Source: a virus
Lineage: Duplodnaviria > Heunggongvirae > Uroviricota > Caudoviricetes
Length of the DNA stretch: 5,399 nt
Direction: 5' to 3' (one strand)
Virus record (IMG/VR): IMGVR_UViG_2526164693_000018
How positions within the stretch are numbered: the first letter of the stretch is position 1; each line of letters begins with the position of its first letter. This document shows positions 1,092-5,399 of this stretch, in pieces. Made by a program: the position numbers and the translations under genes. A model generated the notes under the pieces. That model was not told where the DNA came from. It made no database searches and was given only the letters and a program-made list of their open reading frames with translations.

Positions 1092-1808
<717 letters not shown>

Positions 1809-2182
1809 AGAGGATAGATGGAGTTTAATGGCCATGAGTATCAAGCGGTCAAAAAGAAGTTCATCTATTCATTGAAAGCATAAGGCCATCTGAGTATATC
1901 CGTAATGATCTGGATATTGTCTATAACATCAATGACCGGACGATAGATATCGGTGAGCAGCGTCCTGTATGGCAGGGTGAGGCAGGTGAAAAAACGTCCT
2001 GCCATCAACAAGAATCAAGTGCATCCGCTCTCTGGACAGATGGAAAATTTATTGGATGCAAAAAGATATGAAATAACACCTGTATAGCACGGAGCTTTCT
2101 CTGACCGATGCACTTGAAGTTGTTAGGGCTGACCCAGCCTGCTGTTTCTTTAGGTAAGAGAAAAGAGATTTAGGAGATGAAA

Positions 2183-2209
2183 GGTCGCAGAGGTGCGGCC
2201 TTTTTTATT
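2183..2209 (+). terminator. Intrinsic terminator-like hairpin: stem ggtcgca / tgcggcc (one G-U pair), loop gagg, followed by T6
   Basis: 7-bp stem at 2183-2189 and 2194-2200, then tttttt at 2201-2206. Plus-strand orientation, about 375 nt downstream of the cI stop. Confidence 0.6.
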
Positions 2210-2248
2210 GAGAGTGGATCTTGAACGGAAATTCTCAAGACTTGAGTC

Positions 2249-2277
2249 TTGCATGCAAATCAATTCCTGGATAAACT
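2249..2277 (+). promoter_or_regulatory. Candidate sigma70 promoter for the 173-aa ORF (-35 ttgcat 2249-2254, 17-nt spacer, -10 taaact 2272-2277)
   Basis: Hexamers with canonical spacing about 33 nt upstream of the ORF start, overlapped and preceded by dyad-symmetric motifs (ctcaagacttgag 2234-2246, ttgcatgcaa 2249-2258). Confidence 0.35.
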
Positions 2278-2309
2278 CGATCTGAGTCAATAACTTAGAG
2301 AGAGAGCAA

Positions 2310-2831
2310 ATGGCAAAGTCAAACGTTAGCGTGCAGGCATTCAAGGACTTCCTTGAAGAGCTTATGTCGCTGAACATAATGAAGGAGGCCACCGCTCGAA
2401 ATTTAAAAAACTCATCCGCTCGCCTCTTAACGGTAGTCCAAGAAGAGGAAATGGGTGATGTTACTCAGCTTGATGTGAATGAGCTTGCCGAGCGATACAT
2501 CAACGCAACTGAGCCGAAGCCTAGCGACAGCAGCATTACTGCATATAAAAGCCGCATGGAAAGTGCAATCAAAAAGTTTGTAGCTTTCCAGTCTGGTGAA
2601 GAAATCCCATACACTCCGATTGACAAAGAATCCAGTGAGGAAAAAGATTTGACTGGCGAACCAACAAAAGTCGAAGGCAAGGCTAATGCACTTCATACCT
2701 ATGATCTTCCAGTAGTTCTTCGACCTGAATCAGGGGTTACAGTAACGATTAAAGGCATTCCTAACGATATCACAAACGAAGAAGCCGAACGCATCTCTTC
2801 AATTCTGAAGGTTTACGTTCGGCCTCAATAA
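2310..2831 (+). CDS. Hypothetical protein (173 aa), acidic, no recognised domain; occupies the position of rexA/rexB
   Basis: Longest ORF in the non-lambda segment. Purine-rich stretch gagagagag at 2297-2305 precedes the ATG at 2310. Hydrophilic, net acidic by my count (about 29 D/E against 21 K/R), no obvious transmembrane segment. A promoter-like element lies upstream and a terminator downstream. Confidence 0.6.
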   Translation: MAKSNVSVQAFKDFLEELMSLNIMKEATARNLKNSSARLLTVVQEEEMGDVTQLDVNELAERYINATEPKPSDSSITAYKSRMESAIKKFVAFQSGEEIPYTPIDKESSEEKDLTGEPTKVEGKANALHTYDLPVVLRPESGVTVTIKGIPNDITNEEAERISSILKVYVRPQ

Positions 2832-3004
2832 TGCAAAAGCATTCAGCACAATGTCCAACTCCCCAGTCCGACATTGATGCTGTTTAACCAGAGCCTCCAA
2901 AAGGAGCCCTTGTTAAGGTACACAATATTTGCGATGTAACCTTAGCGCGTCTGGTACATTTTTTCAAGCGGTTGTAGGGCTGCCGCCAATATGAGAAAAC
3001 ACAG

Positions 3005-3127
3005 ATGTCTACATACAATTTGAATGACCAATTCGATCGAGAAGTTCATGTGAATGCCTATGAACGGATAAGGCATGGAAATCTTGAACATGTGTGTGAG
3101 CATTATCGCTCAAGGCCACACCGCTAA
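3005..3127 (+). CDS. Candidate small ORF (40 aa, MSTYNLNDQFDREVHVNAYERIRHGNLEHVCEHYRSRPHR), speculative
   Basis: ATG at 3005, stop taa at 3125-3127, ending 6 nt before a strong intrinsic terminator. Only a weak Shine-Dalgarno (gaga at 2993-2996). Below the length cutoff of the ORF track. The region could instead be a 3'UTR or sRNA. Confidence 0.25.
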   Translation: MSTYNLNDQFDREVHVNAYERIRHGNLEHVCEHYRSRPHR

Positions 3128-3132
3128 TCATC

Positions 3133-3161
3133 AACCCGGCCTCCATGCCGGGTTTTCTTTT
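3133..3161 (+). terminator. Strong intrinsic terminator: stem aacccggc / gccgggtt, loop ctccat, followed by ttctttt
   Basis: 8-bp GC-rich perfect stem (3133-3140 and 3147-3154) with a T-rich tail on the plus strand. The reverse-strand tail is less U-rich, so it is mainly unidirectional. Confidence 0.75.
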
Positions 3162-3341
3162 CCTCTCGCCCAAAAAAACACATAACCAATTGTATTTATT
3201 GGAAAATAAATAGATACAACTCACTAAACAACGCAATTCTGATCTCTCCTTACATCGCCGAGGCAATACACCCACGCTAAAAAACAATACTATTAAATAC
3301 AAAGCGTTGTAAAAAAACGCCCCGTTTTAGAACAAATTGTA

Positions 3342-3370
3342 TTGACCAAGTGAAGTACATATCGTACTAT
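3342..3370 (+). promoter_or_regulatory. Candidate pL-equivalent promoter (-35 ttgacc 3342-3347, 17-nt spacer, -10 tactat 3365-3370)
   Basis: Good -35 and moderate -10 with 17-bp spacing, about 45 nt upstream of a boxA-like element and 190 nt upstream of the N-like gene. A 5-bp-arm dyad agtac-N5-gtact (3354-3368) overlaps the spacer and -10. No lambda-type 17-bp OL operators are visible. Confidence 0.4.
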
Positions 3371-3415
3371 TTAACCATCAGCAGGACGCTGGAAGCCAAA
3401 TGGAACAGACTGGCA

Positions 3416-3461
3416 GGCTCTTTAAACAACGTCGACTCTCGACTACGTGGCTGAAAAGCCA
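3416..3461 (+). promoter_or_regulatory. Candidate nutL: boxA-like ggctctttaaacaa (3416-3429) and boxB-like hairpin tggct-gaaa-agcca (3448-3461)
   Basis: gctctttaa matches the boxA consensus (CGCTCTTTA; closer to the rrn-type TGCTCTTTAACAA). Downstream there is a 5-bp stem with a GAAA loop resembling a boxB hairpin. A second short hairpin gtcga-ctc-tcgac (3431-3443) lies between them. Located in the leader of the N-like gene. Confidence 0.5.
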
Positions 3462-3559
3462 GATCACCCAACCACATAAGCTGTGGGATGCAATGCCGAA
3501 GCAACCGTCTCAGGAGGAGCTTCGAGATTGCATCGCCAAAGTTTATTCGGGAGGAATCT

Positions 3560-3832
3560 ATGTCCAGAAAAACAGAATTTAAAGGCACCGCAGCTTCTCG
3601 CCGTAGAGCTCGTCGCGCAAACCTGCAAAGTCAGGAGGCGATTAGCTCCGACAAACTACACAGGCCAACCCCATCACGAGTGGTCTTACAATGCAAACGC
3701 AAACCAGCAATGAGAGCAGAAGTAATAACACTGACAACGTTGACCAGAAAATATGAAGGCTCAACTTGTCTTCCAAATGTAGCTCTTTACGCGGCAGGCT
3801 ACCGTAAATCCAAACAACTGACAGCAAGATGA
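3560..3832 (+). CDS. N: N-family transcription antiterminator (90 aa), P22 gp24 / phi21 N-like rather than lambda N
   Basis: Start chosen at the internal ATG 3560, preceded by gggagg at 3549-3554 (5-nt spacer). N-terminal arginine-rich motif GTAASRRRARRANLQ, typical of N-protein ARMs. The C-terminus LPNVALYAAGYRKSKQLTAR resembles the P22 gene 24 product as I recall it. Lies downstream of the candidate pL and nutL. Confidence 0.75.
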   Translation: MSRKTEFKGTAASRRRARRANLQSQEAISSDKLHRPTPSRVVLQCKRKPAMRAEVITLTTLTRKYEGSTCLPNVALYAAGYRKSKQLTAR

Positions 3833-3890
3833 CTTGTGTTGGTCGCCAGAAAATGAAATTAGGCAGCAAACCACTTATTTGAGGTGATAT

Positions 3891-4142
3891 ATGGAATTTC
3901 ATGAAAGTGCGATTTGTGATTTTCGCGCTAACGCAAATTCAGTAAAACCACAGCCAATTGCAGTTCTTTTTAAAACAATGGGTGCGTGGGCTGTTTTATG
4001 CTTCGCCGCTGACGACACTGACGCAAGAATGGCAATAGGACAAGAGATGGAGATGGACCCGACAAACGATGAATTCATAATTTATGGCGCTCCATCTAAT
4101 TACTTACTTGATACCTGCAACATTTACAACAAGGCTGCCTGA
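3891..4142 (+). CDS. Hypothetical protein (83 aa) in the position occupied by ral in lambda
   Basis: ORF with Shine-Dalgarno gaggtg at 3879-3884, 6 nt before the ATG at 3891. No similarity to lambda Ral that I can recognise except the C-terminal NKAA. Confidence 0.6.
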   Translation: MEFHESAICDFRANANSVKPQPIAVLFKTMGAWAVLCFAADDTDARMAIGQEMEMDPTNDEFIIYGAPSNYLLDTCNIYNKAA

Positions 4143-4278
4143 TGGTGGCCTTTATTTTTGGCATAAACAACAGAATAAACACAGCACTGTGTATTCATTC
4201 CAACGAGTGAATACACGGAGCAATGTCGCTCGTAACTAAACAGGAGCCGACTTGTTCTGATTATTGGAAATCTTCTTT

Positions 4279-4304
4279 GCCCTCCAATGTGAGGGCGATT
4301 TTTT
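4279..4304 (+). terminator. Intrinsic terminator-like hairpin: stem gccctc / gagggc, loop caatgt, followed by ga + T6
   Basis: 6-bp GC-rich stem (4279-4284 and 4291-4296) with tttttt at 4299-4304, located about 20 nt upstream of the 122-aa ORF ribosome-binding site. Analogous in position to tL1 downstream of N. Confidence 0.6.
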
Positions 4305-4324
4305 ATCTGTGAGGATATGAACAG

Positions 4325-4693
4325 ATGTCAAACATCAAAAAATACATCATTGATTACGACTGGAAAGCATCAATAGAAATTGAAATCGACCATGACGTAA
4401 TGACAGAGGAAAAACTTCACCAGATTAATAATTTCTGGTCAGACTCTGAATACCGACTCAATAAACACGGCTCTGTATTAAATGCTGTATTAATCATGCT
4501 GGCGCAACATGCTCTGCTTATAGCAATTTCAAGCGACTTAAATGCATATGGTGTTGTGTGTGAGTTCGACTGGAATGATGGAAATGGTCAGGAAGGATGG
4601 CCTCCAATGGATGGTAGCGAAGGAATAAGAATTACCGATATCGATACATCAGGAATATTTGATTCAGATGATATGACTATCAAAGCCGCCTGA
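4325..4693 (+). CDS. Hypothetical protein (122 aa) with acidic C-terminal region
   Basis: ORF with Shine-Dalgarno gagga at 4311-4315, 9 nt before the ATG at 4325. Asp/Glu-rich C-terminal half (DWNDGNGQEGWPPMDGSEGIRITDIDTSGIFDSDDMT). Not a lambda gene I recognise. Confidence 0.6.
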   Translation: MSNIKKYIIDYDWKASIEIEIDHDVMTEEKLHQINNFWSDSEYRLNKHGSVLNAVLIMLAQHALLIAISSDLNAYGVVCEFDWNDGNGQEGWPPMDGSEGIRITDIDTSGIFDSDDMTIKAA

Positions 4694-4765
4694 GCGCGGC
4701 GTTACCGCATACCAATAACGCTTCACTCGAGGCGTTTTTCGTTATGTATAAATAAGGAGCACACC

Positions 4766-4930
4766 ATGCAATATGCCATTGCAGGGTGGCCTGTTGCTGG
4801 CTGCCCTTCCGAATCTTTACTTGAACGAATCACCCGTAAATTACGTGACGGATGGAAACGCCTTATCGACATACTTAATCAGCCAGGAGTCCCAAAAAAT
4901 GGATCAAACACTTATGGCTATCCAGACTAA
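4766..4930 (+). CDS. cIII: CIII protein (54 aa), FtsH protease inhibitor that stabilises CII
   Basis: Translation [54 protein letters not shown] matches lambda CIII. Shine-Dalgarno aggag at 4755-4759. It is in a different frame from the 4773..5042 track ORF. Confidence 0.92.
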   Translation: MQYAIAGWPVAGCPSESLLERITRKLRDGWKRLIDILNQPGVPKNGSNTYGYPD

Positions 4931-5042
4931 ATTCACTATCGCCACTTTTATTGGCGATGAAAAGATGTTTCGTGAGGCCGTCGACGCTTATAAAAAATGG
5001 ATATTAATACTGAAACTGAGATCAAGCAAAAGCATTCACTAA
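4899..5042 (+). CDS. kil: Kil protein (47 aa), host cell-division inhibitor
   Basis: The internal Met of the 4773..5042 track ORF gives [47 protein letters not shown], matching lambda Kil. Shine-Dalgarno aggag at 4886-4890. Overlaps the cIII 3' end by 32 nt in another frame, as in lambda. Confidence 0.85.
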
Positions 5043-5116
5043 CCCCCTTTCCTGTTTTCCTAATCAGCCTGGCATTTCGCGGGCGATATTTTCACAGCTA
5101 TTTCAGGAGTTCAGCC

Positions 5117-5399
5117 ATGAACGCTTATTACATTCAGGATTGTCTTGAGGCTCAGAGCTGGGCGCGTTACTACCAGCAGATCGCCCGTGAAGAGAAAGAG
5201 GCAGAACTGGCAGACGACATGGGAAAAGGTCTGCCCCAGCACCTGTTTGAATCACTCTGCATCGATCATTTGCAACGCCACGGGGCCAGCAAAAAAGCCA
5301 TTACCCGTGCGTTTGATGACGATGTTGAGTTTCAGGAGCGCATGGCAGAACACATCCGGTACATGGTTGAAACCATTGCTCACCACCAGGTTGATATTG
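5117..5399 (+). CDS. ea10: Ea10-like early protein, N-terminal 94 codons; runs off the right edge of the window
   Basis: Translation [94 protein letters not shown] closely resembles lambda Ea10 from memory. Shine-Dalgarno aggag at 5105-5109. No stop in the window. Confidence 0.75.

Follow-up and report, generated by a model that had tools for sequence, protein, structure and literature searches.

Trp18 of lambda N is important for boxB recognition, the central stretch of the protein is its NusA-binding region, and in P22-type nut sites the boxB loop is GACAA. The laboratory lambda hybrids imm434 and imm21 arose by module exchange around the immunity region with N and the nut sites kept compatible, and viable laboratory hybrids of lambda exchange the whole immunity cassette between conserved linkers. 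The N-NUT system of the H-19B/933W class was reportedly studied by Neely and Friedman. The Sen laboratory has investigated the H-19B N-NUT system, and NusA is recruited to the nut spacer (PMC3526286). According to a deep-mutational study of lambda N and boxB, the critical features of the RNA are the closing U, the G in the first loop position, a purine at loop position 3 and the GNRA fold (PMC12027372). In the protein, the critical residues are Arg6-Arg11, with Glu9 inert, and Lys14 is important (PMC12027372).

Here, we analyzed a stretch of 5,399 nucleotides (the window), which is a lambdoid early regulatory region whose plus strand corresponds to the leftward (pL) transcript. Its features are as follows.

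Minus strand: N-terminus of O, lambda-type.
382-675, minus: cII, lambda-type, located 3' of nutR.
786-755, minus: nutR, lambda-type.
786-778, minus: boxA of nutR, CGCTCTTAC (RNA CGCUCUUAC; lambda boxA CGCUCUUA).
769-755, minus: boxB of nutR, GCCCTGAAAAAGGGC, folding as GCCCU-GAAAA-AGGGC (GCCCUGAAAAAGGGC).
794-994, minus: cro, lambda-type.
1021-1084: OR operators, lambda-type (OR1, 1021-1037; OR3, 1068-1084).
1095-1808, plus: cI repressor, 237 aa.
1710-1720: crossover interval at the 3' end of cI, from the allele map.
2310-2831, plus: ORF of 173 aa.
Plus strand: ORF of 40 aa.
3133-3154, plus: terminator-like hairpin.
About 3295-3311, 3328-3344 and 3353-3369, plus: OL operators, VT2-Sakai-type, from the annotation of AP000422.
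3342-3347 (-35, TTGACC) and 3365-3370 (-10, TACTAT), plus: pL promoter, VT2-Sakai-type, from a promoter scan.
3416-3429, plus: boxA of nutL, GGCTCTTTAAACAA (RNA GGCUCUUUAAACAA).
3431-3443, plus: spacer hairpin of nutL, GTCGA-CTC-TCGAC, followed by the conserved CUACG.
3448-3461, plus: boxB of nutL, UGGCU-GAAA-AGCCA, a 5-bp stem with a true GNRA tetraloop.
3560-3832, plus: N antiterminator, 90 aa (ATG at 3560, GGAGG at 3551-3555).
Plus strand, after the N gene: ORF of 83 aa, then ea10, cIII, kil and gam.

The operator and pL annotations of AP000422 were transferred to the window at an offset of 701. N, nutL, cro, cI, cII and the downstream genes are all intact. Going by the map of lambda, we take the Rho-dependent terminator tR1 to lie between nutR and cII; the annotation of the lambda locus marks only rutA/rutB in this interval. 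The sole match in an Rfam scan of the window (E up to 1) was the cIII thermoregulator Lambda_thermo in the cIII leader (4753-4811, 88.5 bits, full length), and no nut or boxB family was found.

The first-pass annotation had described a non-lambda N combined with a lambda-type nutR and a different nutL at positions 3416-3832, and all three elements are present in the sequence. As a location, 3416 holds for the start of the module, being the first base of the nutL boxA, but not for the gene, which begins at 3560. As had been claimed, nutR is exactly lambda-type; boxA, spacer and boxB are identical to those of lambda (NC_001416, locus L010), the first mismatch lies beyond the site at position 751, and the 8-nt spacer and the location between cro and cII agree with the description of lambda nutR. 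The boxB tggct-GAAA-agcca reported for nutL was likewise located, at 3448-3461. The whole nutL (3416-3461) is 100% identical to that of VT2-Sakai-type Stx phages, and the segment corresponding to 3416-3456 is annotated in AP000422 as 'putative N-utilization leftward'. Its boxA, which we take to be rrn-like, is kept in 80 of 81 related loci, the remaining contig beginning at N.

It had also been considered that the real nutL might be a different element matching nutR. In the window, we found neither a second lambda-type boxB (up to three mismatches) nor a second GCTGAAAAGC-type boxB (up to one mismatch), and nutL's boxB class has no cro-side site there. A real nutL or nutR elsewhere was rejected as a candidate: the window and L065, the only other contig with this combination (see below), contain no extra nut site of either class.

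Downstream of boxA, nutL contains two hairpins, those of the spacer and of boxB, as does the H-19B-type NUT, judging from the fold and the conserved stems. In close relatives, the spacer hairpin has a constant stem and a variable loop (CTC, ACAC, ACTC, GCAC or ATC), and in more distant ones the stem is compensated (GGTGA/TCACC, GATTC/GAATC). The boxB hairpin forms all five pairs in 19 distinct nutL and nutR sequences of the Sakai-class family, with compensatory changes at pairs 1, 2 and 5 and with pairs 3 and 4 invariant as G-C and C-G. The pairs were counted by a script, because the MAFFT alignment had placed the loop indel after the 3' stem. On this covariation, the boxB hairpin of Sakai-class nut sites is above chance. 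Lambda boxB differs from the 19 sites at pair 3 and in loop length, and is accompanied by neither the spacer hairpin nor CUACG.

In the minimum-free-energy fold, GCUCUUU of boxA pairs with GAAAAGC, the 3' half of boxB, and the spacer hairpin is enclosed between them. This alternative pairing appears both in nutL (3414-3470) and in the native nutR of the family (L001, 1455-1513, minus strand), and the first base of boxA covaries with the boxB stem, being G in nutL and C in the native nutR. The fold recalls the 'alternative NUT RNA structures' that are said to figure in the title of the 2000 paper by Neely and Friedman.

The longest ORF around N spans 3488-3832; we set the start at the ATG at 3560 because it matches the annotated VT2-Sakai N and the 90-aa homologues. 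The protein is 100% identical to N of VT2-Sakai-type Stx phages, and 601 bases around the gene are 100% identical to many Stx1 and Stx2 phages, including VT2-Sakai, in which the gene is annotated as N. Three parts can be distinguished in it.

Residues about 9-27: arginine-rich motif (ARM), GTAASRRRARRANLQSQEA.
Central stretch, similar to that of lambda N: LHRPTPSRVVLQCKRKP.
C-terminus, P22-type: LPNVALYAAGYRKSKQLTAR.

The protein matches the Pfam family PF25694 N_peptide over residues 1-90 (3.4e-32, 111.3 bits, cut-off 27.9), including the C-terminal YAAGYRKSKQLTAR module, and gives no match to PF11438 N36 (lambda N) at E up to 0.1, with lambda N itself scoring 92 bits against the latter. The P22-type module covers the C-terminal ~25 residues only and occurs in every PF25694 protein, irrespective of the ARM. 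Of the 18 residues of the ARM core, 9 are identical in lambda, 9 in phi21-like, 6 in P22-like and 5 in H-19B-class N. By BLASTP, the window N is 35% identical to lambda N over 63 aa (E 4e-5), spanning the ARM and the adjoining central stretch; 49% identical to the H-19B/933W class over 53 aa, where an indel of 7 residues follows RRR(E/A)R; 54% identical to phi21-like N over 28 aa; and 47% identical over 19 aa to P22-like N, represented in these comparisons by the homologue P0096. The assignment of this N to the P22 gp24/phi21 lineage, as opposed to lambda, is thus correct for the C-terminus but only partly so for the ARM, which is as close to lambda as to phi21-like N and farther from P22-like N. 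On these alignments, the window ARM is a class of its own, N-terminally nearest to the H-19B/933W N and equally close to lambda and phi21.

The segment 3829-3882 (plus strand), which overlaps the N stop codon (ATGA), reads MTCVGRQKMKLGSKPLI followed by a stop in another frame; the same residues end a lambda-type N variant in L008 (8221-8547), ITCSGRQKIKGKSIPLI of lambda N comes close, and lambda/phi21-type N proteins share this C-terminus. By its sequence, the segment looks like an out-of-frame remnant or linker conserved at the 3' end of N genes. The 90-aa proteins P0069 and P0079 carry a further ARM class, DDNARNRRRARRQAQREQAM, on the P22-type C-terminus, with an RRRARRxxQ core that is lambda-like in appearance.

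To which nutR does such an N belong? Among 81 loci selected for an N of at least 98% identity to that of the window, 75 contain the native VT2-Sakai nutR, one (L065) the lambda type, two are deletion remnants and three are too short, so that a GNRA-tetraloop nutR occurs in 75 of the 76 loci with a readable cro-side nut site. The native site, located after cro, consists of CGCUCUUUGUAACAA, the hairpin GGAC-AUUC-GUCC, CUACG and UCGCU-GAAA-AGCGA; it agrees with nutL in architecture and tetraloop, and in its stem a G-C pair is replaced by C-G, a compensatory change. From this survey, the cognate nutR of the window N can be given as boxA, spacer hairpin and UCGCU-GAAA-AGCGA. The 75 loci vary widely in the distance from N to nutR and include at least five OL operator (immunity) types, which indicates that N, nutL and nutR stayed together through repeated swaps of the immunity cassette. 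The two remnants, L070 and L072, retain Sakai-type N and nutL, and in them cro is truncated, with a Q-like gene and host genes behind it and no nutR.

The other classes are equally consistent. H-19B-class N is accompanied by a GACAA boxB at nutR in 75/75 loci with readable upstream sequence and at nutL in 78/80. Among 120 IMG/VR stretches with lambda nutR, 88 are informative, all of which have the lambda N ARM and/or lambda nutL; another class of N was found beside lambda nutR in none of these 88. Thus, the boxB specificity of ARMs, from which the first-pass annotation argued, is borne out comparatively (75/76 for the Sakai class, 75/75 for the H-19B class, 88/88 for lambda), and in the window the specificity group of N and nutL is not that of nutR. 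The nutL of the H-19B/933W class (L113-L192, e.g., L113, 5800-5870) has no canonical boxA (no GCTCTT) and consists only of the spacer hairpin, CUACG and GACAA boxB; the corresponding nutR has CGCU(A/C)UUUU.

Lambda-type OL and OR are found together with an N-matching nutR in 6 loci with Sakai N and in 27 with H-19B N. In the six, boxA (window 780) and the pL transcript start (3376) are the exact limits of lambda-cassette homology, and in the 27 the boundary is again at boxA. In natural mosaics such as L038, L066, L095 and L113, the whole immunity cassette is swapped between two fixed joints, one inside the boxA of nutR, at CGCTCTT (window 780), and the other at the pL transcript start ATCAGCAGGACGC (window 3376), which is common even to lambda.

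The window departs from this pattern by its origin. Positions 1398-5399 are 99.4% identical to VT2-Sakai, Stx1, Stx2 and PA-series phages and to O157 chromosomes, and for positions 1-1806 the match, at 99.7% identity, is a lambda-immunity prophage that the same O157:H7 genomes carry (e.g., CP030767, CP016755) and that normally has a lambda-type N with lambda nutL. Allele by allele, 1-1709 come from the lambda-immunity prophage of E. coli O157:H7 and the sequence from 1721 onward from VT2-Sakai: Sakai-specific mismatches end at 1709, and mismatches to the lambda-type parent begin at 1721. The parents share ~410 bp of the region coding for the cI C-terminal domain at ~95% identity, and the cI protein is identical to that of the O157:H7 lambda-immunity prophage, a repressor of lambda specificity. 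The allele map shows the window to be a two-parent hybrid with the joint inside cI at 1710-1720. N and nutR are therefore mismatched because the right and left arms come from two parents joined in cI, and the mismatch seems to be a rare side effect of recombination or of assembly and not an evolved dual-specificity system.

The same joint produces a second mismatch. Lambda-type operators occur at OR only (1021-1037, 1068-1084), and the operators around pL are Sakai-type, e.g., AGTACATATCGTACT; judged by operator type, cI and OR are lambda-type against a Sakai-type OL. It follows that the element's own repressor should hold pR and not pL, and N and kil would then be unrepressed unless a co-resident prophage of Sakai immunity supplies the repressor. 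Neither this second mismatch nor the cause of the first, the two-parent hybrid, had been noticed in the first-pass annotation.

Among 5,426 complete E. coli genomes and 50,697 phage records, the joined arrangement was not found, and none of them covers at least 80% of the window. The neighborhoods of the 173-aa ORF (53 contigs read) had Sakai-type cI and cro in 10 of 10 among the matches listed, and a context look-up with the exact cI protein returned parental contexts only, again among the matches listed. A second hybrid is L065, a 6.8-kb IMG/VR draft contig 99.78% identical to the window, whose switch interval (1662-1708) lies one informative site before that of the window. The exact junction pattern (1695-1789) had no matches in IMG/VR, L065 differing at 1709; with N allowed at 1709, it matched L065 only in IMG/VR and nothing in the JGI metagenomes. 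In the collections searched, these counts show the combination of this N and nutL with lambda nutR to be rare. The reciprocal joint that would be expected from an inversion was rejected: its four IMG/VR matches are all unrelated mosaics, three with Sakai N (L068, L070, L072) and one with lambda nut sites (L316).

Beyond the joint, positions 1809-2203 (after cI) are ~82% like a region in the H-19B-class loci L119 and L123, and 1000-2201 are about 93% identical overall to eight complete genomes. In the part of these genomes matching 1809-2203, an intact DUF3024 protein is encoded after a lambda-type cI; in the window, no ORF of at least 60 aa is left there. The 173-aa ORF (2310-2831) belongs to no Pfam family and has a sub-threshold match to a SAM-like integrase N-terminal domain (E 0.047).

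We consider with moderate confidence that the window is a real but rare recombinant prophage segment in which N acts at nutL and the lambda nutR is a passenger. Positions 3416-3832 are, in this reading, the module by which a Shiga-toxin phage of the VT2-Sakai (Sp5) type antiterminates leftward transcription through N. From pL, nutL (boxA, spacer hairpin and GAAA-tetraloop boxB) and then N would be transcribed; by analogy with lambda and H-19B N, the ARM would bind the boxB of its own leader, the central and C-terminal parts would engage NusA and RNA polymerase, and leftward transcription would become termination-resistant. Joined to this module at 1710-1720 is a lambda-immunity right arm (cI N-terminal domain, OR, cro, nutR, cII and O), the two parents being co-residents of E. 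coli O157:H7 genomes. The lambda-type nutR would have come along with the join without having evolved as the partner of the window N; going by the sequence, N would work at nutL, and antitermination rightward from lambda nutR would be absent or weak. Since pL would escape the element's lambda-specificity cI, the element may be defective or reliant on co-resident prophages. This reading agrees with the clean single switch of alleles within an 11-bp interval and with the use of the cI C-terminal region as a natural mosaic joint elsewhere, and L065, as a second and non-identical copy, could mean that the combination persists in nature. It is weakened by the fact that both copies are on short draft contigs with different joints, which also fits recurrent assembly chimeras.

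A possible, though doubtful, explanation is therefore that the contig was mis-joined in the shared cI stretch, both prophages being intact in the source, probably an O157:H7-like draft genome, and no such element existing in any cell. Individual complete O157 genomes indeed contain both parents, the hybrid was found neither in complete E. coli genomes nor in phage records or JGI metagenomes, the sole other instance is a 6.8-kb draft contig, and the two instances switch parent at different points, as independent mis-joins would. The details of the joint fit this explanation less well: the 11-bp interval between the informative sites (1709, 1721) appears too short for a simple k-mer graph mis-join, the switch is single and clean with no mixed consensus, and the cI C-terminal region is a proven natural mosaic joint in other contigs.

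A third explanation, under which the window would be a viable phage with both arms working, depends on the specificity of N. Four N proteins, some of them chimeric, are informative in this respect.

P0046: Sakai-like ARM; H-19B-like body and leader; nutL GAAA, nutR GAAA.
P0027: H-19B-like ARM with the 7-residue insertion; Sakai-like body; nutL GACAA, nutR GACAA.
P0037 (Pantoea): Sakai-class ARM; Sakai-like body with a longer central stretch, 105 aa; nutL GAAA, nutR GAAA.
P0016 (Cronobacter): Sakai-class ARM; Sakai-like body; nutL GAAA, nutR GCAA.

By this comparison, boxB loop type tracks the ARM class, chimeric proteins included, rather than the nut flanks or the remainder of N, and relaxed specificity of the window N, though conceivable, is therefore not supported. 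The first-pass annotation had raised relaxed specificity as a possibility; nothing speaks positively for it, the combination occurring only here and on one short contig.

Functional cross-recognition is nevertheless physically plausible, because lambda and Sakai boxB share the closing U-A, the loop G1, the purine at loop position 3 and the GNRA fold, and the window ARM retains the RRRxRR core with only the Glu9 equivalent altered. Sakai-class N may conceivably, though improbably, read the bare GNRA fold, accepting alike a true GAAA tetraloop and the GNRA-like pentaloop of lambda, whose GAAAA would fold as GNRA with one base flipped out. The literature search returned no experimental data on the specificity of VT2-Sakai N. 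From the comparisons made here, we think it unlikely that the window N uses lambda nutR efficiently.

A phage exploiting such recognition in both arms is equally improbable: the shared boxB features, the lambda-like RRRxRRA..Q.Q ARM core, the intactness of N, nutL, cro, cI, cII and the downstream genes and the occurrence of the arrangement twice speak for it, but the combination is found in 1/76 readable relatives and 0/88 informative lambda-nutR loci, natural lambda-immunity mosaics break at boxA and so leave boxB matched to N, ARM classes are already separated without exception by one additional loop base (GAAA versus GACAA), the ARM has Leu and Glu at the positions of lambda Lys14 and Trp18 and thus no equivalents of these residues, lambda nutR is devoid of the spacer hairpin and CUACG conserved in 19/19 family nut sites, and the mismatch of OL and cI would persist even with a working nutR. 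If cross-recognition did occur, the window would be a viable phage bridging two antitermination specificity groups, a natural route for the exchange of N/nut specificity would exist, and a minimal ARM/tetraloop pair would be usable as an RNA-tethering tool.

Returning to the recombinant reading, little is at stake in the finding itself, since known lambdoid modules are involved and their odd pairing is explained by the join in cI. The gain is comparative. The cognate nut sites of a widespread Stx-phage N have a GNRA-tetraloop boxB after a spacer hairpin, and in chimeric as in other N proteins their loop type goes with the ARM class; mosaics swap the cassette between the nutR boxA and the pL start and thereby keep N matched to both nut sites. 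The window is a rare exception to this matched-cassette rule. If the hybrid is real, it constitutes a natural test of the window N on lambda boxB and of a prophage whose repressor cannot bind its own OL. With regard to O157:H7, the N/nutL module of the window is identical to that of the Shiga-toxin phages.

Among the known systems, the closest are VT2-Sakai (Sp5) and the Stx1/Stx2 phages (AP000422, NC_000902, AP005153), in which pL/OL, nutL, N, the ORF downstream, ea10, cIII, kil and gam are 99.4-100% identical to those of the window; in place of the lambda-type cI N-terminal domain, OR, cro and nutR of the window, they have versions of their own, with a tetraloop nutR. The N-NUT system of H-19B/933W (PMC3526286) has the same order of nut elements (boxA, spacer hairpin, CUACG, boxB) and an N whose N-terminal 53 aa are 49% identical and whose C-terminus is identical to those of the window N. 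Its signature, a GACAA loop with a 127-aa N having the ARM RSRRRER-LKAKALA, in which 7 residues are inserted after RRRER, is replaced in the window by a GAAA loop and a 90-aa N without the insertion. Lambda shares with the window an identical nutR and, more distantly, the ARM core RRRxRRA..Q.Q and the central stretch (35% over 63 aa), but the window N has no N36 match and a P22-type C-terminus, and its cognate boxB is a tetraloop with a different stem. P22 gp24 belongs to the same Pfam family, PF25694, and has the same C-terminal module, LPxxALYAAGYRKSKQLTAR, with a different ARM (6/18 core identities). In contrast to the imm434 and imm21 hybrids, the cassette itself is split in the window, inside cI. 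All parts of the window are thus known; what is rare is their combination, and it is no new kind of antitermination system.
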